27,181 bases of DNA from IMG/VR virus record IMGVR_UViG_3300009964_000029; one strand, given 5' to 3'. Under the pieces are notes generated by a model. It was not told where the DNA came from. It did not search any database and worked only from the letters and a program-made list of their open reading frames with translations. Each line of letters starts with the position of its first letter. Within the stretch, counting starts at the first letter, position 1. The stretch is from a virus. A program made the translations under genes and the position numbers. Positions 4,367-27,181 of this stretch are shown piece after piece.

Positions 4367-4402
4367 TTTATTGTGTCCTTTCCTTTTTTGTTTGATATTA
4401 TT

Positions 4403-4431
4403 ATTATAGCATAGTGTAGTGATGATGTCCA
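4403..4431 (-). promoter_or_regulatory. early promoter copy 2
   Basis: -10 4403-4408, -35 4426-4431, 17-bp spacer; drives acidic protein gene. Confidence 0.65.
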
Positions 4432-4456
4432 ATATTACGCTGAGAGAGAAAACTGT

Positions 4457-4762
4457 TTAGTATTTTTCACCATAGTGAGTAACGAACGCGCTGATAGCAC
4501 TGCACGCTATCCACTGGTAGAATAGTTGGCCTGTGCTGTCGGCTGGACGGTAGAAATTATACGCGAAAACAGTGAGGGCTGTTACCCACGGCGCTAAACA
4601 CCAGCCGCAAATCATGAGTTGTTCCCACCCACTGCTACTTTTTTTAAAGTGTTGTATCCACGATTCGCGGATTTTTTTCATTATCCCGTACGGCAGGTCC
4701 AGATAGCGCACGGCATAGTTAATATAGGCGCTGATGAAACTGATAATAATAATGTCTCGCAT
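4457..4762 (-). CDS. membrane protein, DUF1360-like (C-x-W-C-x-x-W motif)
   Basis: ICGWCLAPWVTALTVFAYNFY; 2-3 TM segments. Confidence 0.45.
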   Translation of the reverse strand: MRDIIIISFISAYINYAVRYLDLPYGIMKKIRESWIQHFKKSSSGWEQLMICGWCLAPWVTALTVFAYNFYRPADSTGQLFYQWIACSAISAFVTHYGEKY

Positions 4763-4776
4763 TTTGTCCCTAATTG

Positions 4777-4785
4777 TGGTATAAT
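4777..4785 (+). promoter_or_regulatory. extended -10 TGGTATAAT on + strand, 7 nt upstream of terminator hairpin: candidate promoter of ~45-nt antisense sRNA
   Basis: tgg 4777-4779, tataat 4780-4785; no clear -35. Confidence 0.25.
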
Positions 4786-4791
4786 ACGTGT

Positions 4792-4840
4792 AGGCTGTGT
4801 TCTTGTCCTTTCGCGCACAGCCTTTATTTTTTGTCTTTTT
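4792..4840 (+). terminator. intrinsic terminator oriented for + strand: AGGCTGTG-16 nt-CACAGCCT then TTATTTTTTGTCTTTTT
   Basis: perfect 8-bp stem plus T-run on + strand; antisense to early operon. Confidence 0.5.
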
Positions 4841-5372
4841 CCGTGTTCTCCTCGCTGTCTTTCTGACAGTATTCGATGATACGGCTTATCGCGGCGTTAA
4901 CATTTTTGATGTTGTGACAGTTAGCGGTGATCTTCCCGCACAAGTAGTCCATTTGGTGGCTGTTGTTTAGTGTCACGTCGTTCAACAGTTCATTGATATA
5001 CTCGATGTGGGCTGTCTTTTCCAGCCTGGCCTGGTATTGGGCGAGTATCATACGTGCGGCCTGCTGGACCGGGGTACCGTCCAACGGGATAGGCTTACCA
5101 TCAACTTTCATACCTAGTTCGTGTAACGGGCGGCCGGAGTACAAATATCCGAGTATAGCCGTATACAACCATACGTCTACCGTAGTTATTTGTTCTGGCT
5201 CCCAGCCGGCTTCTATCGCTACGATTGGGTTAGCGAAACCTCCGGCATACAATTCAACGAGCTTATCATACCCGTTCTGTCGGGCGGCTGACAGTAAACG
5301 GTAGTTATATTCACGTTCTGGACCGTCCCACGTATTCAAAAACAGTATTGAGGGGCTTGTAAAACCAGCCAT
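4824..5372 (-). CDS. hypothetical protein (182 aa)
   Basis: ATG 5372 preceded by AAGGCGGTCTTA (this SD-like sequence is also the 3' acceptor arm of the tRNA-like element); no recognisable domain. Confidence 0.6.
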   Translation of the reverse strand: MAGFTSPSILFLNTWDGPEREYNYRLLSAARQNGYDKLVELYAGGFANPIVAIEAGWEPEQITTVDVWLYTAILGYLYSGRPLHELGMKVDGKPIPLDGTPVQQAARMILAQYQARLEKTAHIEYINELLNDVTLNNSHQMDYLCGKITANCHNIKNVNAAISRIIEYCQKDSEENTEKDKK

Positions 5373-5456: not shown

Positions 5457-5855
5457 TTAGAATAACACATTCTGCTGCTCATTGCAACCCTCCTGCAATT
5501 CACGTACATTTTCGCCCGTCTCACGATGCCACCACTGGGCAAACAGCGAACGGTGGCACAATTCTTTACGAATATCATCAAAACATAAGAGCACAAGCCG
5601 GTCGCACCCAGCAGAATCACAAATCTGCTGCAAATCTAAACGGACCCGCTCAACACCATAATCATTAAGCATACTCACATAATGCTGAGTAAACTCTTCA
5701 TCAGTACCTTCTAAAAACCAACGGCCGGGAGTCAACAAAAAACACTTATACTCCAAATCGTACGGCAAACGATAACGGGGAGCACTAAACGTAATCCGCA
5801 CAGGGACACCCTCAGAAGGCTTAAAATCACGATACCGATTCGTAAACAATAACAT
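5457..5855 (-). CDS. DUF488 family protein (YeaO-like)
   Basis: RYRDFKPSEG...APRY...DLEYK..LTP...LVLLCFDDIRKELCHRSLFAQWW resembles DUF488/YeaO; ATG 5855 with AAAGGA 9 nt upstream (track uses alternative TTG 5873 with GGGTGG SD). Confidence 0.55.
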   Translation of the reverse strand: MLLFTNRYRDFKPSEGVPVRITFSAPRYRLPYDLEYKCFLLTPGRWFLEGTDEEFTQHYVSMLNDYGVERVRLDLQQICDSAGCDRLVLLCFDDIRKELCHRSLFAQWWHRETGENVRELQEGCNEQQNVLF

Positions 5856-5899
5856 AACAATATATCCTTTCAACTATAACCACCCGACTTTTTAGGTGA

Positions 5900-5945
5900 T
5901 ATATTTATATTATAGTACACGGAGTAGACAAAAAACACAAGGAAA
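5900..5945 (-). promoter_or_regulatory. candidate leftward promoter for DUF488 operon (-10 TATAAT = rc of 5909-5914; weak -35)
   Basis: TATAAT on minus strand 41 nt upstream of TTG 5873; no good -35. Confidence 0.25.
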
Positions 5946-6024
5946 CCCAACCCACACAACAACCATATAACAAAAACCTATAACACAACACTCAACAACT
6001 AACAAAGAACAAGGAGAATAGAGT

Positions 6025-6108
6025 ATGTGGTTACCCTCTTCCCGCTCACCACCCAACTTAACGCTCTTTAACCCTCTTAATAAATTTCAACTTATCCACT
6101 TCACTTGA
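6025..6108 (+). CDS. 27-codon ORF with ideal SD (AAGGAG, 8-nt spacer) after CA-rich leader; possible micropeptide/leader peptide
   Basis: MWLPSSRSPPNLTLFNPLNKFQLIHFT; lies in 877-bp intergenic region. Confidence 0.2.
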   Translation: MWLPSSRSPPNLTLFNPLNKFQLIHFT

Positions 6109-6508
6109 TTCTTTTAGTTTGAGCTTGAGAGATACTTACCCCTTACTACACAACTAACATAGTCATGTCTTAAGGGGCAAAGTCTAAACGAAGGAACAAT
6201 AAGCAAGAACAAAACGGTAATCTTCACCGTCATCTCCTAGCCGTCGCCGTCGATTAAACTTAGATAGTGTCATTCTCTGTTAACTATCACAGCGGTAAAC
6301 TTGTGAGGGCACTTCCCAACAAATATGACCTTTGTATCGGAGCGTGTCGGCCAGCCCGTTTATGCCACGCCCAGCCTCACAATCTGTTAACGTTTCACCC
6401 TCTAACGGTGTTCACCCCGGGTTAGGGGGGGCAAGAATTTTATACAGCCCATCAACTTGCACATCAGGCTGTGTCGTATTATATGAGTAATTGTATCAAG
6501 CAATTATT

Positions 6509-6521
6509 ATAATTCAATATA
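6509..6521. repeat. 13-bp direct repeat ATAATTCAATATA copy 1 (candidate operator)
   Basis: exact 13-mer also at 6634-6646; the two flank the divergent promoter region. Confidence 0.5.
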
Positions 6522-6594
6522 ATTCTAGGTATTAAATTATGTATTAGTTATAGTGTAGCACACCCCCGTGACGAAAACAAACGAGACACACGAT

Positions 6595-6623
6595 TTGCAT
6601 TGTAGACAGAGTCGTGCTATACT
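6595..6623 (+). promoter_or_regulatory. rightward promoter TTGCAT-17-TATACT with TGn
   Basis: ttgcat 6595-6600, 17-bp spacer, tatact 6618-6623, tgc at 6615-6617; faces late genes. Confidence 0.45.
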
Positions 6624-6633
6624 GAATACTGTC

Positions 6634-6646
6634 ATAATTCAATATA
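6634..6646. repeat. 13-bp direct repeat ATAATTCAATATA copy 2
   Basis: exact match to 6509-6521, just downstream of predicted rightward TSS. Confidence 0.5.
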
Positions 6647-6674
6647 GTACTATGCACCCCGCCTGGAAGCCAAC

Positions 6675-6691
6675 CCCCGGACGGGGTTTTT
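6675..6691 (+). terminator. weak hairpin CCCC-GGAC-GGGG plus TTTTT between rightward promoter and first late gene (possible attenuator)
   Basis: 4-bp GC stem then 5 T. Confidence 0.3.
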
Positions 6692-6719
6692 AATAACCCC
6701 ATTTATCGAGTAAACGTGA

Positions 6720-6732
6720 TATAATATATAAT
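6720..6732 (+). promoter_or_regulatory. TATAAT hexamers (6720-6725, 6727-6732) abutting ATG 6733; leaderless-mRNA configuration
   Basis: no SD before ATG 6733; -10 ends 7 nt before start codon. Confidence 0.35.
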
Positions 6733-6930
6733 ATGGAACAAGAAACATACCTCACAGTCAAACAATTCGCCCAACTCATAAACACCCCCAAATACAACAT
6801 CTATAACTGGATATACGCAGGCAAACTACCTTACATCACCCTCACGGGCACCCACGCCATCAGAATCCCACTCAACAAAGCAATAACCCACCACCCCGCC
6901 ACCAAGCCAACAGAACAGGAAACACGATGA
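6733..6930 (+). CDS. HTH_17 (excisionase/MerR-like) DNA-binding protein, 65 aa; possible DNA-recognition part of small terminase
   Basis: LTVKQFAQLINTPKYNIYNWIYAGKLPYITLTGTHAIRIP matches HTH_17 pattern; ATGA overlap with next gene. Confidence 0.55.
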   Translation: MEQETYLTVKQFAQLINTPKYNIYNWIYAGKLPYITLTGTHAIRIPLNKAITHHPATKPTEQETR

Positions 6931-7319
6931 CAGAAAACCCTAAACCCCACCGCGACCCCAAAGGCCGCTTCCTCAAAAACACGCCCCCACCCAACCCCAC
7001 CGGAACAGGCGGATTCACCGACCACCCAGAACACCGCAACAACGGCCGATGGGACCACCACGCCAGCTACACATACAACCTCAACCGCTACAAAAACATG
7101 ACCAACAGCGAACTCGCCCAAGAAATCCAAAACATCGACAACCTCACCCAAGCAGAACAAACAGCCCTCCGCCTCATCATCGCATCAAAAAAAGAAAACG
7201 AACTCGCCTTCCGCAAATACCAAGACATCGCCGACCGAACAGAAGGACGCGCCCCCCAAACCATCAACCAAAACATCACCCAAACAGAACCCCCCCAAAT
7301 CAACATCACCTTCAAATAA
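6927..7319 (+). CDS. putative terminase small subunit
   Basis: N-terminal DPKGRFLKN...NPTGTGG resembles GRF.KGN..G TerS motif; coiled-coil segment; sits directly upstream of TerL. Confidence 0.45.
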   Translation: MTENPKPHRDPKGRFLKNTPPPNPTGTGGFTDHPEHRNNGRWDHHASYTYNLNRYKNMTNSELAQEIQNIDNLTQAEQTALRLIIASKKENELAFRKYQDIADRTEGRAPQTINQNITQTEPPQINITFK

Positions 7320-7341
7320 CCAACCGTAGCAGACGAAAAAC

Positions 7342-8616
7342 ATGGACTATATAATCCCCCAAGAATACGCCCCCCTCTTCTACTACACCCACCAACCATA
7401 CCCCGACTACCGATACTACGACTTCAGCGGAGGACGCTCCAGCGGCAAAAGCACCACCGTAGCACTCGCCATAACTCTCCAAGCAACCCAACAAAAAACC
7501 CGCATACTCTGCTGCCGCGAATACCAAAACAGCATCAAAGACAGCGTCAAAGCCCTCATAGAACAAATCATCACCGACAACCAACTCCCCGGATACACCA
7601 TACTCAACGACACAATCACCCACCAAAACGGCAGCCAATTCATCTTCAAAGGCCTCCACGACAACACCGAAGCCACCATAAAAAGCCTACACAACATCAA
7701 CATCTGCTGGGTCGAAGAAGCCCAAACCATCAGCAAACAAAGCCTCGACATACTCCTCCCCACCATCAGAACCCCCCACAGCATCATCATCTACACCAGA
7801 AACCCCCTCACCCCAACCGACGAAATCACCCTCCGACACGTCACCAACCCCACCCCAGAAACCGCAAAACGCACCTACCACAAACACGTCACCTACCGAA
7901 TACTCGAACGAGCAGGAATCCTCCCCACAGAAATCAAACACCAAATCAAAGAAGCCAAAAACACACCCGACTACAACCACATCTGGGAAGGCCAACCCAC
8001 ACAAAACCTCACCAACCAACTCATCACCTGGACCGAACTCACCCAAACCGAACACAACCCCCAACAAACAGGCGGCACAACCCTCGGCATAGACGTAGCC
8101 CGATACGGAAACGACCGCACCGCCATCGCCACCATACAAGGCAACACCCTAACAACCATCACCACCTGGCAACACGCCAGCATCACACAATCAGCACAAC
8201 GCATAAAAACCATATGCGGCACCCTCCCCAACCTCACCAGCATCAAAATCGACGACACCGGCGTCGGAGGCGGACTCACCGACATACTCACCGACATGCA
8301 CCTACCAGTCCAACCCATCAACTTCGGCAGCAAACCCACCCAACCCAAAAAATACGACACCACCATCAGCGAAATGTGGTTCACCTTCAAACAAAAACTC
8401 CCCACCATACGCATAAACCCCGAACTCACAACTAAGAACGAACTCTACACAGAACTCACCAACCGAGAATGGACCATCGACAACCAAAACCGTAGAGCCA
8501 TACAAAAAAAACGAGACTACAAACAGCAACAGCAAACAGGCAGCCCAGACCTCGCCGACGCAGTACTACTCGCATATTACCAACCCAAACGATTACATTG
8601 GAACGTTAGCGTATAA
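7342..8616 (+). CDS. terL: terminase large subunit (PBSX/XtmB-like, headful type)
   Basis: Walker A YYDFSGGRSSGKST as in PBSX-family TerL; size and position; extreme T/P/N/Q/H-rich composition. Confidence 0.85.
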   Translation: MDYIIPQEYAPLFYYTHQPYPDYRYYDFSGGRSSGKSTTVALAITLQATQQKTRILCCREYQNSIKDSVKALIEQIITDNQLPGYTILNDTITHQNGSQFIFKGLHDNTEATIKSLHNINICWVEEAQTISKQSLDILLPTIRTPHSIIIYTRNPLTPTDEITLRHVTNPTPETAKRTYHKHVTYRILERAGILPTEIKHQIKEAKNTPDYNHIWEGQPTQNLTNQLITWTELTQTEHNPQQTGGTTLGIDVARYGNDRTAIATIQGNTLTTITTWQHASITQSAQRIKTICGTLPNLTSIKIDDTGVGGGLTDILTDMHLPVQPINFGSKPTQPKKYDTTISEMWFTFKQKLPTIRINPELTTKNELYTELTNREWTIDNQNRRAIQKKRDYKQQQQTGSPDLADAVLLAYYQPKRLHWNVSV

Positions 8617-10816: not shown

Positions 10817-11001
10817 TAATCCGCTGCTCTAAGTGTGGCCGGTTCCTTGGTGAAAACCACCAGCCCACCATCATTATGCTTAAATGTCCTAACTGCCACT
10901 CATACAGCGAATACAAACTCAAACCCCTCACCACTCATGGTATACTAGAGTTTAAGCCCACCATGAGCGTTGTAAACGCGGGCCACGCAGAAACACACTA
11001 A
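10813..11001 (+). CDS. Com-like Cys4 zinc-ribbon protein (62 aa)
   Basis: ATG 10813 overlaps portal stop (ATGA); MIIRCSKCGRFLGENHQPTIIMLKCPNCHSY aligns with Mu Com IRCKHCNKLL...IEIRCPRCKRHI (C-x2-C-x17-C-x2-C). Confidence 0.5.
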   Translation: MIIRCSKCGRFLGENHQPTIIMLKCPNCHSYSEYKLKPLTTHGILEFKPTMSVVNAGHAETH

Positions 11002-11011
11002 AGGAGAGAAC

Positions 11012-12844
11012 TTGTCCTACCGTAAACAGTTCACCGCTCACACAACACCCAGTAGCGATGACGAGGGATACACCCTCCAATTCCTAGCGAACAGTGGAAC
11101 CGTTATGCAAGACAACGGATACACAGTAGACCTGGACACGCTACTCGTCCCCATACAGGACGGTGAAATGCGCCTCGTGAACCAGCTTGAAGACACAGAC
11201 ACGCTTAGTATCCCGCTTCTACTCGACCATGACATGAGCGTTAACAGTCAAGCTGGTGTCATACGCAGACTCTGGGTAGACGAGGACGGGCTGCACGCTG
11301 AAGCACGGTTAAGCCACGTACCCAGCGGCGAACTAGTCCGACAACTCGCCCTGGACGGGGCCCTCACCAGCAGTTTCAGTATCACTATCGACACACCAAC
11401 ATCTCCCGGTAACGACAAAATCATACACGACAGTCAACTCGTGGAAATCAGCGTCGTGTATCGTGGAGCAGACTATAAAACAGCTTTCACTAGTATTAAC
11501 AGTAAAGGAGACCATACAGTGGAAACAATTGAAAACAAGCTCAACAGCGATGAGAACAAAACCCTGACAGACGCTATCGAGCAGGCCACGCAGGCTATTC
11601 AGCAGGCTGTGGACAAGCTTACCGACGATACAGATAAGCCAGACGATAAGCCGGCCGATACAGATAAGCCAGACGATAAGCCGGCCGATACAAAGCCTGT
11701 ACCACCGGTACAGAACAGCCATCAGCCACAGTTCAACAAAGCTAACACTACCGTCACACAGGCATACACGGCCAGCAGCCGCACGTATCTCGACAGTAAA
11801 CAGGCCATGAACGACTACGCTAACCTCCTGTTCAACAGCCGAAACGATGACCCACAGGCCATACACGAGGAATGGGCCGCTTACGCTCGTAAGAAGCTCG
11901 GTATGCAGTCCTACGCTTCCACTGTTAGCGGCGCAGACTATCTCATACCAACAGGTGTTGTTACGAAGATAGAAGACGTGTTGAACACAGCCGGTTCGGG
12001 TATCTGGCAGGCTGTCAACCACACAGGCATGGACGCTCCTATCACTTTGACTGCTAACATGCTCGGCCTGGACAGTGACGATGGTCGTGCCCACGGGTAT
12101 CCAGTCAGCGAGTACGGGAACAGTAAGAAGCAGGAGAAAATCCAGCTTAAGAAACGCCAGTTTGTTACAGACTACGTATATAAGTATCTCCCCGTACCGA
12201 AGGGCGAACTGAGGCGTACCATGCAGAACCCACAGGTCCTGCTGAACTATATCCTCCAGGAGCTTCCGGCACGTCTTATTCAGACAATGGAACGCGCTAT
12301 CGTTATGAACACTGATTGGACTGACCTGACGATGTTTAAGTCAGTGTACGCAGATTCGCTTCAGACTGATGCGGCTGCTGGGGCGGAAACGATAGCAGGC
12401 CAGCGGTTTGCTGCACAGTACACACCAGCTAACAACGAGACACTGTTGGAATCGTTTATCGCTGCTAACGCTCTTGTTACAGCTGAAGGGGACAGGATAC
12501 TGGTCACCAGTCGTGAGAACGCTGCCAAGATGAAACTCGCTAAAGGTTCCGACGGACAGTTCCAGGCACCCCTGGGCGCTGACTATGCGGGCCTTATCGG
12601 CGTGTCTAAGATTGTCACCCCGGAATGGTGGAACGCGACTGACAGTAAGAACGCTCAGGGTGTTATCTTCGTCCCGTCCGCTTACAACGTGTACGGTGAT
12701 GATGGTATCCAGGCGTTCACGAACTTCAAACTGGAAACCAACGAGAATCAGTTCCTTCAGGAAATTTTCACTGGTGGCGGTTTGGCTAAGCTCAAGTCTG
12801 GTGTTGTTGTGAAACCGGCAGCAGCTGCTCCGGCTGGCCACTAA
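11012..12844 (+). CDS. prohead protease (S78-like) - scaffold/linker - HK97-fold major capsid protein fusion
   Basis: TTG start after AAAGGAGAG; N-terminus LLLDHD...GLHAEARL...DGALTSSFSITI...EISVVYRGADYKTAF resembles HK97 prohead protease; tandem DTDKPDDKPA linker; C-terminal MCP-like. Confidence 0.7.
   Translation: MSYRKQFTAHTTPSSDDEGYTLQFLANSGTVMQDNGYTVDLDTLLVPIQDGEMRLVNQLEDTDTLSIPLLLDHDMSVNSQAGVIRRLWVDEDGLHAEARLSHVPSGELVRQLALDGALTSSFSITIDTPTSPGNDKIIHDSQLVEISVVYRGADYKTAFTSINSKGDHTVETIENKLNSDENKTLTDAIEQATQAIQQAVDKLTDDTDKPDDKPADTDKPDDKPADTKPVPPVQNSHQPQFNKANTTVTQAYTASSRTYLDSKQAMNDYANLLFNSRNDDPQAIHEEWAAYARKKLGMQSYASTVSGADYLIPTGVVTKIEDVLNTAGSGIWQAVNHTGMDAPITLTANMLGLDSDDGRAHGYPVSEYGNSKKQEKIQLKKRQFVTDYVYKYLPVPKGELRRTMQNPQVLLNYILQELPARLIQTMERAIVMNTDWTDLTMFKSVYADSLQTDAAAGAETIAGQRFAAQYTPANNETLLESFIAANALVTAEGDRILVTSRENAAKMKLAKGSDGQFQAPLGADYAGLIGVSKIVTPEWWNATDSKNAQGVIFVPSAYNVYGDDGIQAFTNFKLETNENQFLQEIFTGGGLAKLKSGVVVKPAAAAPAGH
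11627..11686 (+). repeat. 30-bp tandem repeat x2 in capsid-fusion linker
   Basis: gatacagataagccagacgataagccggcc x2 (DTDKPDDKPA x2). Confidence 0.75.
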
Positions 12845-14775: not shown

Positions 14776-15363
14776 TTGGCAACAGCAACAACCTACGAGC
14801 TCATCGGGAAGAAAACAGTGTACATCGGTGCGGAAGAATTCCCACCGGACCTTGTTTCAGATGAGGCGGCAACAATAACTGTAACACCAGCAACTACTGA
14901 AATCAGTTCCCAGATGGGCAAAATCAAGGTCCCGAACGGAACGTTTGATGAGATAAGCGCGAAGATTACACTTATTGTGAACAATATTCAGACGCTTATG
15001 CGTATCTTCCCGGGTATGGCGAAGAAAGCAACGTTTAATAGTGGTACTACCGGGCAGGTGATTTTCGGCGCGACAGAATGCAAGTCCGTGACACCGGTGC
15101 CGGTGGTTATCCATAATGCGTGTGATGACGGTAGTTCACAGGATATTCAGATACCTTCCGCGTATATTGCTAACGGTGGTGAGTTCAAACTGAAGCAGGG
15201 CGACCCCGTAACAATTGAACTGAATATCACGCCTCTGTCCGGTGAGAAAGGCGCGATTATTATGGGTGAGGGCATGCTTGACAGTGCTTCTCATTATGAC
15301 GCTATGTCCCAGTCGTACAAGAAGAACACGGCTCCTGCTGTTGTTCCCCCGGCCGGCCACTAA
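14776..15363 (+). CDS. major tail protein
   Basis: TTG start after AAGGAGG; 195 aa; position before chaperones/TMP; ends PAGH like capsid protein. Confidence 0.6.
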   Translation: MATATTYELIGKKTVYIGAEEFPPDLVSDEAATITVTPATTEISSQMGKIKVPNGTFDEISAKITLIVNNIQTLMRIFPGMAKKATFNSGTTGQVIFGATECKSVTPVPVVIHNACDDGSSQDIQIPSAYIANGGEFKLKQGDPVTIELNITPLSGEKGAIIMGEGMLDSASHYDAMSQSYKKNTAPAVVPPAGH

Positions 15364-15388
15364 ACAACAGGAATGAAAGGAGCTTCTT

Positions 15389-15733
15389 TTGACTACTGTT
15401 TTTGATACACGTAACATTGAACAGGCAACCAGTTTCACGGTAAAGAGCAGTTTCGGTGACTACGAGTTTACGGTTAGCCCGCTGCCTTTGTCTGCGTATA
15501 ACAGGCTGGTCGACAGTCAGGTTAAGAACCAGTCGTTGCAGCAGTCTGGCGGTTTGGACGTGAAACAGATTAACGAGTTTCAGAAGCTGGCTACACGTCT
15601 TGTGGAACCGTTGATTGAACCTCAACCGCAGTTCCAGGAGTGGAAAGCGAAAACAACTGAGATTGCTTACAAGACAGTTATGGATAATGTTATTAGTATG
15701 GTTATGCCGAACCTGACGCCAGCAGACAAGTAA
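15389..15733 (+). CDS. tail assembly chaperone (gpG-like)
   Basis: TTG start after GAAAGGAG; synteny. Confidence 0.55.
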   Translation: MTTVFDTRNIEQATSFTVKSSFGDYEFTVSPLPLSAYNRLVDSQVKNQSLQQSGGLDVKQINEFQKLATRLVEPLIEPQPQFQEWKAKTTEIAYKTVMDNVISMVMPNLTPADK

Positions 15734-15752
15734 AATCACGAGAGGGGCGCGT

Positions 15753-16118
15753 ATGGCTGAGTATCATAATGCTCTTAGTGACCTGTCAGCTGAGGACATA
15801 CGCAAACTCCGTGAATTCAAAAAAGCCCGCCAGCCTGAAACACAAAGTACGGTTGGCGGGTTTTCCACGCAATGGGAGCAATTGATAGCGGAGTTCGCTT
15901 CCTATTACGGGTGGCTGGGTGTTCGTGACGTGCTCGAAGACAGGCTTCCGGTGGAAACGTTTTACGGTTTATTGGACGCTGGGCGTGTCCAGTATAACCG
16001 GCGTCGAGGCGAACAGCTCGTAGACTTGTATAACAGTATCGCGTGCGCATTGGGGGAGAACGGGGACAGGGAGATACAAAAACTCGTGAAACGGTTAACA
16101 ACAATGGGAAAAGGATAG
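15753..16118 (+). CDS. second tail chaperone (gpT-like) with own start codon
   Basis: ATG after GAGAGGGG; upstream frame closed by TGA 15714-15716 leaving only 17 nt of overlap for any frameshift. Confidence 0.45.
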   Translation: MAEYHNALSDLSAEDIRKLREFKKARQPETQSTVGGFSTQWEQLIAEFASYYGWLGVRDVLEDRLPVETFYGLLDAGRVQYNRRRGEQLVDLYNSIACALGENGDREIQKLVKRLTTMGKG

Positions 16119-24924: not shown

Positions 24925-24958
24925 TTGAGTGTCCTTTCTTTTTTTGTTTGATATTATT

Positions 24959-24987
24959 ATTATAGCATAGTGTAGTGATGATGTCCA
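24959..24987 (-). promoter_or_regulatory. early promoter copy 3
   Basis: -10 24959-24964, -35 24982-24987; directly downstream of terminator 25003-25035; drives 24271-24924. Confidence 0.65.
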
Positions 24988-25002
24988 ATATTATGCTAAC
25001 AG

Positions 25003-25035
25003 AATAAAATAAAAGGGGAGGACAGTTGCCTCCCC
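25003..25035 (-). terminator. rho-independent terminator after YqaJ gene
   Basis: GGGGAGG-ACAGTTG-CCTCCCC perfect 7-bp stem; U-run TTTTATTTTATT on minus strand. Confidence 0.65.
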
Positions 25036-26528: not shown

Positions 26529-26562
26529 TCGAGTGTCCTTTCCTTTTTTGGTTGATATTAAT

Positions 26563-26591
26563 ATTATACCATAGTGTGGTAATGATGTCCA
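26563..26591 (-). promoter_or_regulatory. early promoter copy 4
   Basis: -10 26563-26568 (TGGTATAAT on minus), -35 26586-26591; drives ERF/YqaJ operon. Confidence 0.6.
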
Positions 26592-26615
26592 ATTAATTAT
26601 GCCGAGAGCATAAAA

Positions 26616-26969
26616 TTATTCTGGATAAGCCTCTATCAGTTTGCTTACTTCATCGTCCGAGAACGTCCGGTAGCCGCTCACTTTCTGCCGGAAATATGCT
26701 ACCGGGATATCGAGCAGCTTAGCGACTGTCTGAGCGTCCAGATTATACTGATTCATCACATAGATAACAGTACCTGTATTATTCGCGGTAGCGAGCGCGT
26801 ACGCGCGGCCGAATTGGCTGCGCAGGTTAAGGATTTCCCCGTCCGGGCTAATTGTCGCGAGGAACAGGGCAGGACGGGCTCCCTGCCGGCGGCGGATAAC
26901 AAACTGTGTTGTTGTCCCGTCGCTCCTTATCTGTTCTGGCCCTGCGGGTTCGTAACGGTAATCATTCAT
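26616..26969 (-). CDS. hypothetical HTH-containing early protein (117 aa)
   Basis: SD AAAGGAGATATATT-ATG; putative HTH QTVAKLLDIPVAYFRQKVSG. Confidence 0.5.
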   Translation of the reverse strand: MNDYRYEPAGPEQIRSDGTTTQFVIRRRQGARPALFLATISPDGEILNLRSQFGRAYALATANNTGTVIYVMNQYNLDAQTVAKLLDIPVAYFRQKVSGYRTFSDDEVSKLIEAYPE

Positions 26970-26983
26970 AATATATCTCCTTT

Positions 26984-27181
26984 TTAGATTGATTCTGTGG
27001 CTTTTTGGACTTTTTCTAAGCGGATTTCTGTATGCGGCTCCCAGTCCATAGGATCCCCTTTCCGGCGTTGTCTCACCCCCCTTCGGCCTTCCACTAAAGT
27101 GGAGGGGAGCACTTTGTAGATAATGCTTTCCATTATCTGACTATCGTCCACGTATGCGACGCCGTTCAATGCGTCGGTGAC
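26984..27181 (-). CDS. rusA: RusA C-terminal part (5' end beyond window edge; same gene as 1-388)
   Basis: track ORF 26984-27169 (NGVAYVDDSQIMESIIYKVL...) is in frame with the 388 start through the 127-bp overlap. Confidence 0.7.
   Translation of the reverse strand, partial: VTDALNGVAYVDDSQIMESIIYKVLPSTLVEGRRGVRQRRKGDPMDWEPHTEIRLEKVQKATESI
27055..27181. repeat. terminal redundancy copy B (identical to 1-127)
   Basis: see copy A; RusA frame is continuous when copies are overlapped (388 nt + 71 nt = 153 codons). Confidence 0.9.

Follow-up and report, generated by a model that had tools for sequence, protein, structure and literature searches.

The viral record IMGVR_UViG_3300009964_000029 of IMG/VR, analysed here over its whole length of 27,181 nucleotides (the window), is a circular-looking phage contig of 27,054 bp with bases 1-127 exactly repeated at 27055-27181. 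Such an exact terminal overlap of 127 bp marks a circularly closed assembly, and the contig ends are thus uninformative on the physical ends of the DNA. Our subject is a gap of 877 bp (5856-6732), referred to below as the hub, which lies between the ATG of a leftward gene coding for 132 amino acids (5855) and the ATG of a rightward HTH_17 gene (6733; the product belongs to family PF12728). The leftward genes, which run from 5855 back across the contig junction to 24271, include those for SSB, ERF, YqaJ exonuclease and a DAM-like domain; the rightward genes from 6733 encode HTH_17, a small-terminase-like protein of 130 residues (TerS), TerL (PF04466) and a portal/MuF fusion, beyond which follow head, tail and lysis genes. 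A first-pass annotation, made from the letters of the window, had described a gene-free gap at the divergence of early and late genes. This gap is real, with SSB, ERF, YqaJ and the DAM-like gene running leftward and HTH_17, TerS, TerL and portal running rightward, and every motif listed in that annotation is indeed present at its position; the main feature of the gap, a conserved folded core at 6258-6477, was overlooked. As judged from its sequence, the hub is a gene-free control region with predicted host-type promoters on both strands.

Three sets of phages were available for comparison: 16 close relatives, found by exact-protein look-ups of the flanking genes and then aligned (gap 90-97% identical); three distant relatives that possess the hub, namely BlindUri1, BlindBasel1 and the contig L040; and three related phages devoid of it (L017, L043 and L044; TerL 56-59% identical). 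BlindUri1 and BlindBasel1, which are phages of Bifidobacterium asteroides from the honeybee gut, represent the nearest cultured phages (TerL 54% identical). TerL-based scans of metagenome and genome collections recovered no close relatives, and two exact-pattern scans of IMG/VR gave no further copy of the hub beyond the known contig.

The profile of the aligned gap matches BlindUri1, BlindBasel1 and L040 at an nhmmer E of about 1e-20, and cmsearch scores the element in these at 194-204 bits; there, too, the core resides within a gap of ~850 bp between divergent operons. Over 220 nt the core is 62-64% identical between the two clades, as compared with 54% for TerL and only 18% for the adjacent HTH_17 proteins. 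Its elements are the following:

6258-6477, no strand assigned: conserved folded core with eight helices and 42 pairs (covariation; homologues in the second clade)
6263-67/6284-88: helix P1
6301-08/6375-82: helix P2, which encloses P2a, P3 and P3a
6319-23/6331-35: helix P2a
6339-46/6366-72: helix P3
6348-50/6356-58: helix P3a
6396-99/6407-10: helix P4'
6415-18/6426-29: helix P4
6419-6425, no strand assigned: hypervariable 7-nt loop of P4, with a closing pair (6418/6426) that alternates between C-G and G-C
6444-49/6467-72: helix P5

The eight helices were drawn up on a 14-sequence alignment, that is, the structure was derived from the same sequences on which it was then assessed, and these represent only two deep clades. 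In this alignment 94.6% of the cells pair, versus ~40% when the partners are slid by 1-3 columns. Sixteen of the 42 pairs have changed on both sides, as opposed to 7.7±1.8 after shuffling (0 of 500 shuffles as high) and 0-2 in the slid controls, and five compensatory changes are found within the close relatives (6266/6285, 6307/6376, 6319/6335, 6418/6426 and 6444/6472). Pairs of the G.U type are nearly absent on either strand (3 of 588 cells on the plus strand), which may mean that both strands require the helices. The six reading frames of the core each carry 3-16 stops in both clades. The motif TCTGTTAAC occurs in two places, at 6276-6284 in the P1 loop and at 6383-6391 in the single-stranded joint after P2, with TCTGT being kept at both in BlindUri1; it may constitute a binding or tertiary-contact motif.

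The scarcity of wobble pairs on either strand also speaks for a core that acts as DNA only, be it through inverted-repeat sites for phage HTH proteins or through single-strand hairpins that serve as a priming signal. Likewise in favour of such a role are the invariable linkage of the adjacent HTH_17 gene, the presence of TCTGTTAAC at both 6276 and 6383, and the finding that a strand otherwise made up of A and C can fold nowhere but in the core. We nonetheless regard this explanation as very unlikely: protein operators do not usually have branched, nested helices such as P2 with P2a, P3 and P3a inside, phages that are nearly identical differ by single compensatory flips, and the DNA has been kept although the linked HTH_17 proteins have diverged to the 18% identity given above.

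Neither the known RNA families nor the phage and plasmid records searched contain a counterpart of the core outside the phages described here. The covariance models of Rfam 15 yielded 0 matches over the whole window at gathering thresholds and, with E up to 10, just two matches at chance level in positions 5700-6900; a search of the gap for tRNA and tmRNA found none. When the hub was compared by blastn with 50,697 GenBank phage records, only BlindUri1 and BlindBasel1 were matched, and there was no match among the PLSDB plasmids. A covariance model of the core (R1) found it, among the loci compared, only in these two phage groups, with no copies in the relatives devoid of the hub. The core is a candidate for a new structured non-coding family that is absent from Rfam.

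Whatever its function, the core contains a loop whose rate of change exceeds that of all its surroundings. In P4, the stem of 4 bp is kept although the loop varies, with seven versions in 19 sequences (GGGTTAG, GTGTAAA, ATGCTAA, GGGTCAG, GGTTTAG, GGGCTAG and GGATTAG), and 8 of 9 positions are variable at the loop versus 34 of 368 in the remaining core. The 9-bp inverted repeat at 6398-6429 noted in the first reading is present, but the right arm of the repeat falls into this loop, and most relatives no longer have the pairing; the conserved units at this place are two local hairpins. A complementary site that co-varies with the loop was sought in each locus and none proved consistent; an exact 9-mer does occur at window position 1598, at the borderline of chance, and the 5' end of TerS stays constant while the loop varies.

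The hairpin bears some likeness to a CRISPR repeat. The type I-E repeat of B. asteroides reads GTGTTCCCCGCATCCGCGGGGATGATCC (PMC4521832), and the hub at 6410-6432 reads GTGTTCACCCG-N7-CGGGGG, so that the two have GTGTTC and the C/G arms in common, corresponding to roughly the 5' two-thirds of the repeat. A mimic of the repeat acting as an RNA anti-CRISPR was considered and rejected: the loop length and the 3' flank differ, and the core of BlindUri1 lacks GTGTTC even though B. asteroides is the host of this phage. The CRISPR-DR models of Rfam gave no match in the hub either, and the likeness is probably a coincidence.

To the right of the core lie the following features:

6477-6614, no strand assigned: movable promoter cassette of 138 bp, flanked by GTCGT, absent from 8 of 16 relatives and from BlindUri1
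-35 at 6580-6575, TGc with TACACT at 6560-6552, CTACACTAT at 6558-6550, minus strand: distal leftward early-type promoter, assigned by motif match
6615-6623, plus strand: extended -10 TGcTATACT of the rightward promoter, kept in 16 of 16 relatives and present as TGaTAGACT in BlindUri1
6634-6646, plus strand: second copy of a 13-mer, ATAAYTCAATAYA, just downstream of the predicted rightward start, found in 16 of 16 with 1-2 changes
6656-6691, plus strand: hairpin (6+4 bp) with a T-run, terminator- or attenuator-like, between the rightward promoter and HTH_17 (-15.9 kcal/mol)
6717-6735, plus strand: TGaTATAAT, 7 nt and the ATG of HTH_17 without a Shine-Dalgarno sequence, a candidate promoter for a leaderless mRNA

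The cassette comprises an AT-rich tract, the first copy of the 13-mer, the leftward early-type promoter and the rightward -35 TTGCAT (6595-6600). The relatives that lack it (L022, L023, L026, L029, L030, L034, L035 and L036) carry, just upstream of HTH_17, a related box of ~55 bp that follows window position 6704. In the rightward reading, this box provides the next -10 with its -35 (TTGCAT-17-TGcTATACT in the window, TAGACA-17-TGaTATAAT in the cassette-less type); read leftward, it gives TTGTTT-17-TGcTACACT in the window, with TATACT in several relatives, and TTGCGT-17-TGcTATACT in the cassette-less type. In either of the two positions its leftward promoter points at the core. The first-pass annotation had seen a relative of the early promoters at 6541-6565, and this is borne out by the shared CTACACTAT, which occurs five times in the window versus 0.17 expected; four of the copies are on the minus strand, one of them at 6550-6558 in the hub and the others in three early promoters. 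The motif TGNTATAMT occurs 10 times versus 1.7 expected, including the four early promoters and the hub sites at 6615-6623 and 6717-6725. The early promoter itself belongs to a module of ~79 bp present in four copies (2108-2186, 4379-4457, 24935-25013 and 26539-26617), each ahead of a leftward gene block, which reads TTGGACA...CTACACTATGCTATAAT on the minus strand. Further copies of TGNTATAMT at 10938 and 14699 on the plus strand may be internal late promoters.

Since the cassette is dispensable, several of the earlier proposals have to be modified. The rightward promoter TTGCAT-17-TGcTATACT (6595-6623) is present, and its -10 is retained in 16 of 16 relatives, but its -35 belongs to the cassette; where the cassette is missing, TTGCAC (6456-6461) takes the place of TTGCAT at the same spacing of 17 nt. 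The 13-mers at 6509-6521 and 6634-6646, proposed as an operator pair, are exact in the window only and match at 10-11 of 13 positions elsewhere, with the first copy missing from 8 of 16 relatives. The tract at 6481-6545, proposed as an unwinding element, has 83% A+T but is part of the cassette that half of the 16 relatives and BlindUri1 lack, and candidate leftward promoters within this tract were discarded as not conserved for the same reason. Repeats in the hub do not exceed two copies, and the features of an iteron-type origin, an array of direct repeats together with an AT-rich unwinding tract that is conserved, are not found here.

Between the rightward promoter and HTH_17, the earlier reading had proposed a weak hairpin followed by T5 (6675-6691) and, with it, attenuation. 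An attenuator-like site is indeed kept, but the real stem is longer (6656-6687), with one compensatory change from A-U to G-C and one change from C-G to U.G on the plus strand, and the T-run amounts to T5 in the window and L021 and to T3-4 elsewhere. The same place in BlindUri1, ~85 nt past TGaTAGACT, is occupied by a stem of 9 bp, two of its pairs being G.U, and by T7, and the sequence in between is unrelated; a unit of promoter plus terminator is thus conserved in position, which lends partial support to the attenuation idea. Immediately ahead of HTH_17, TGnTATAAT-N7-ATG is found in 16 of 16 relatives. Leaderless mRNAs are common in Actinobacteria, and the arrangement suggests that the putative HTH_17 mRNA is leaderless. 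In BlindUri1 (MT006234.1 15937-16092; L037 4438-4593), an unannotated open reading frame (ORF) of 51 amino acids reaches the Pfam threshold for HTH_17; it directly follows the hub (15240-15936), and the next annotated gene begins within it.

The part of the hub to the left of the core contains:

5909-5914, minus strand: proximal leftward -10 TATAAT (reverse complement), 54 nt upstream of the start of the 132-aa gene
5925-6015, no strand assigned: CA-rich tract of variable length with AACACAAC-like units, A+C 0.86, GU-rich on the leftward transcript
6011-6108, plus strand: AAGGAG and an ORF of 27 codons, not a conserved gene
6139-6177, no strand assigned: hairpin P0, CCCCTTA/TAAGGGG, with 7 pairs kept in 15 of 15 relatives and one change from A-T to G.T

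The leftward TATAAT is present as annotated and is kept in 15 of 15 relatives, including L034, whose left-hand gene differs; no -35 is visible. It mostly forms part of a palindrome, ATTATAAT, which doubles as a -10 on the plus strand (TATAGT at 5910-5915 in the window). The CA-rich tract, taken at first for a special leader or translational enhancer, consists of A and C to 86%, but the downstream genes are likewise rich in A and C; most relatives have an insertion of 15-16 nt in it, L026 has a deletion of 13 nt, and the hub of BlindUri1 contains no counterpart. Nor does the 27-codon ORF behave like a gene: it is disrupted in 9 of 15 relatives (ACG as start in four, of which L024 additionally has a 32-nt deletion in the region; ATG followed directly by TGA in five), and the differences among the six intact copies change amino acids instead of being mainly silent, which is not the pattern of a small leader peptide. 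The 7-bp inverted repeat at 6139-6177 has fared better, being both present and conserved, and BlindUri1 has CCCTT/AAGGG within a 9-bp outer stem at this position. A leftward terminator-like hairpin at 6231-6213 was rejected, its T-run being interrupted in about half of the relatives and BlindUri1 having none.

The positions of these promoters bear on two further explanations of the core. One is that it functions on the plus strand as a cis-acting leader RNA, transcribed from a two-way promoter at 5906-5915, which decides on read-through of 6656-6691 into HTH_17 and the late genes, either by processive antitermination or as a riboswitch-like switch, comparable to PR'-tR' of phage lambda or put of HK022. 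That a promoter and a terminator precede the first late-side gene in conserved position in both clades, that the G.U pairs of the BlindUri1 terminator work on the plus strand only, that the core and HTH_17 have stayed linked, and that the core ends 46 nt before the hairpin in the cassette-less type are all consistent with this idea. We consider it unlikely, however, as in 8 of 16 relatives the cassette of 138 bp, with a promoter of its own, intervenes between core and hairpin, the core has a weak plus-strand promoter upstream of it, the T-run comprises just 3-4 residues in most close relatives, HTH_17 has its own conserved promoter 7 nt from its ATG, and no alternative pairing between core and terminator is common to both clades.

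The other explanation views the hub as a pair of sense and antisense regulatory RNAs that govern compatibility or immunity in co-infection, or else early/late timing, with the P4 loop as specificity determinant and a short rightward RNA (~60 nt in the window, ~85 nt in BlindUri1) as the counter-transcript. A hypervariable 7-nt loop on a conserved stem would fit, and so would helices that are of the Watson-Crick type on both strands, as expected if both transcripts fold; moreover, the short plus-strand unit overlaps the predicted start of the leftward transcript in the cassette-less type and in BlindUri1. In the arrangement of the window, however, the promoters stand back to back, so that the transcripts would not overlap, and the co-varying target of the loop was not found elsewhere in the loci. 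We rate this explanation as distinctly unlikely; it partly coincides with the replication-origin hypothesis put forward below, since control of the ColE1 type works likewise.

The hub also marks the left edge of an unusual compositional domain. The plus strand consists almost purely of A and C over 5457-~10800, with a peak at 6800-8600, where A+C amounts to 72-80%, before it falls to 50% near 12.2 kb; the CA-rich tract forms the left edge. The share of A or C at third codon positions, counted on the coding strand of each gene, is:

TerS, plus strand: 96%
TerL, plus strand: 95%
HTH_17, plus strand: 89%
132-aa gene, minus strand: 21%

In TerS and TerL, G and T make up fractions of 0.03 and 0.02 of the third positions. 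The opposite bias of the 132-aa gene on its own coding strand implies that the bias follows the DNA strand and not the mRNA, which rules out selection at the mRNA level as its source; hypermutation of the deaminase type is ruled out as well, transversions being as frequent as transitions. The bias is not present in BlindUri1 or other clades. Public gene calls omit TerL and HTH_17 in many close relatives and instead contain a spurious ORF of 231-244 residues on the opposite strand (L020 8357-9091, L021 3796-4530, L025, L029, L030, L031-L034 and L036). It is the A/C-only strand that makes automatic gene callers skip these two genes in many such genomes, apparently through the few stop codons on the G/T-rich strand.

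The folded core is the sole island exempt from this bias (A+C 0.51-0.57), and one may speculate that it is a new kind of folded priming or control signal: an A/C-rich plus strand cannot fold, and in a stage of the phage when the strand exists in single-stranded form, be it DNA or a long RNA, the core would be the sole place for host enzymes to load, with the P4 loop serving as the compatibility type of a lineage as in ColE1-like sense/antisense control. We think it rather improbable that this is so.

The strongest anomaly of strand composition begins at the hub, and the hub of this phage lies directly upstream of HTH_17, TerS and TerL; both could point to the core as a packaging recognition site (pac), for which the first-pass annotation had recommended looking here. 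Such sites are normally located in or beside terS. The core, however, is placed 5.3-5.6 kb, or about ten genes, upstream of TerS and TerL in BlindUri1 and L040 (5.4 kb from the terminase genes in BlindUri1), which renders this role highly improbable.

The same annotation had recommended the hub as a place to look for the origin of replication, and here the comparison is more encouraging. In all three phages devoid of the hub (L017, L043 and L044), the gene immediately left of the early/late divergence codes for a replication-initiation protein (PHROG E 1e-19 to 1e-26), which in L017 is just 16 bp away from HTH_17. The hub and an initiator gene thus alternate at one and the same spot, and this makes the hub a sensible place for an origin. 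In the hub carriers, Pfam and PHROG scans recognised no initiator, helicase, primase or polymerase, but only ERF, YqaJ and SSB. Furthermore, the non-coding stretch has a leftward promoter-like site on either side, and the distal site has the CTACACTAT and TGc of the four early promoters. The conservation of the core across both clades, its covarying helices, the lack of a conserved ORF and a cassette whose leftward promoter faces the core from both of its positions fit this picture as well.

Taken together, these observations make it tempting to suggest, tentatively and on comparative sequence evidence, that the core may be a transcribed, initiator-free origin of replication that is joined to an early/late promoter switch, which we hold to be the best of the explanations considered here. 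Host RNA polymerase starting from the leftward early-type promoter in the cassette (-10 at 6557-6552) would cross the core (6477-6258) and hairpin P0, and then the GU-rich tract (6015-5925), on its way to the early genes and to the other leftward promoter, at 5914-5909. Host enzymes would then begin DNA synthesis, prompted by the folded non-coding transcript or by the DNA opening which this transcript brings about. A contact of the RNA-RNA or RNA-protein type would owe its specificity to the fast-changing 7-nt loop of P4, and HTH_17 and the late genes would be controlled, from within the same hub, by the rightward promoters (6595-6623 and 6717-6725) and the hairpin with its T-run (6656-6691). 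What the comparison itself shows is that the core is conserved and paired, that promoter motifs are present and that hub and initiator gene replace each other among relatives; transcription of the core, the strand on which it folds and its role in starting replication are points that we infer.

Several observations weigh against an origin of this kind. Hub carriers retain proteins to which no function is assigned (for example, one of 413 aa in L040 and those of 217 and 162 aa in the window), and one of these could be an unrecognised initiator. Phage c2 has no sequence resembling the core, nor, apart from BlindUri1 and BlindBasel1, does any GenBank phage or any of the plasmids searched. An origin at the hub finds no support in the GC skew, whose cumulative minimum is located near 11.7 kb. 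The distal leftward promoter of the window is itself weak (TTGTTT-17-TACACT), the corresponding site in BlindUri1 consists of a -10 only, and a search of the hub for a conserved leftward terminator found none. Finally, one-sided changes produced three G.U events per strand, which leaves the folding strand undecided, and the folding energy of single sequences is no better than that of shuffled ones on either strand (z +0.5 to -1.1); these z-scores are not significant, so that it is the covariation which carries the case for a structured core.

A few observations concern other parts of these genomes. The DAM-like gene of the window (4762-5372) codes for 182 aa, and its counterpart in relatives (L020 4095-6269) is a DAM-like/GNAT fusion of 472 aa followed by a ParB_N gene; the window appears to have suffered a deletion of ~1.6 kb in this region, which fits its length of 27.05 kb versus 28.5-29 kb in the relatives. 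The gene for a head protein of 610 aa contains an exact tandem duplication of 30 bp (11626-11685). L031 and L032 are one ENA contig of 53,444 bp with two hub-to-tail copies 22.2 kb apart and with early regions that differ, and it represents a tandem arrangement or else two strains assembled into a chimera.

If the core is indeed an initiator-free origin, a mechanism documented so far for lactococcal phages of the c2 type would extend to actinobacterial phages of the honeybee gut, and, unlike the c2 origin, this one would have a fold backed by covariation. The genus Bifidobacterium, which is difficult to engineer, could also gain a small replicon from it. The proposal is open to experiment, as both BlindUri1 and its host B. 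asteroides are in culture.

Among known systems, the late unit of lambda (PR', 6S RNA and tR') and the put RNA of HK022 bear comparison. The hub resembles them in that a constitutive-looking promoter, TGcTATACT (6615-6623), is followed within 60-90 nt, directly ahead of the late-side genes, by a terminator-like hairpin and T-run (6656-6691); BlindUri1 has a strong one, the close relatives a weak one (T3-5). Unlike in lambda and HK022, the conserved structure of the hub is situated upstream of the promoter and not in the short transcript, and HTH_17 has its own promoter; general Pfam and PHROG scans of the early genes, among which are many small proteins without assigned function, turned up no Q-like antiterminator. 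The ssoA-type origins of rolling-circle plasmids and the minus-strand origin of M13 are non-coding paired elements of 150-250 nt with promoter-like hexamers. TTGCAC in the P5 loop of the hub, next to TGcTATACT, is reminiscent of these, but they act on single-stranded replicons, and the hub shares no sequence motif with them.

In ColE1, a folded transcript (RNA II) runs for several hundred nucleotides towards the start of DNA synthesis, for which no initiator protein is needed, and the stem-loops of a short counter-transcript (RNA I), with loops of roughly 7 nt, set the specificity. The hub likewise has three hairpins with 7-nt loops (P2a, P4' and P4) and a G-rich transcript tract downstream. 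It differs in belonging to a phage and not to a plasmid, in lacking homology, and in that the short RNA of the window would not overlap the long one.

The origin of the lactococcal c2-type phages (Ceduovirus) is non-coding, lies between divergent early and late blocks and is flanked by the early promoters PE1 and PE2; its non-coding transcript PE1-T, whose length and structure matter, has been implicated in the start of replication, the origin replicates a plasmid without phage proteins, and it contains no ORF or ribosome-binding site under selection (PMC7150918). The hub, too, is a non-coding region of several hundred bases at the early/late divergence of a small siphovirus, and it is likewise without conserved protein-coding capacity, the 27-codon ORF being broken in 9 of 15 relatives and the frames of the core containing stops. 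For the layout with two early promoters, the hub offers candidates by sequence match, namely a distal TTGTTT/TTGCGT-17-TGcTAYACT, weak in BlindUri1, and the proximal TATAAT (5914-5909). In contrast to c2, the host is an actinobacterium and not a lactococcus, the fold has covariation support, and a hypervariable loop and a movable promoter cassette have not been described for c2. As the hub is not homologous in sequence to any of the origin types c2, bIL67 and 923, the resemblance is one of working principle and not of family membership.

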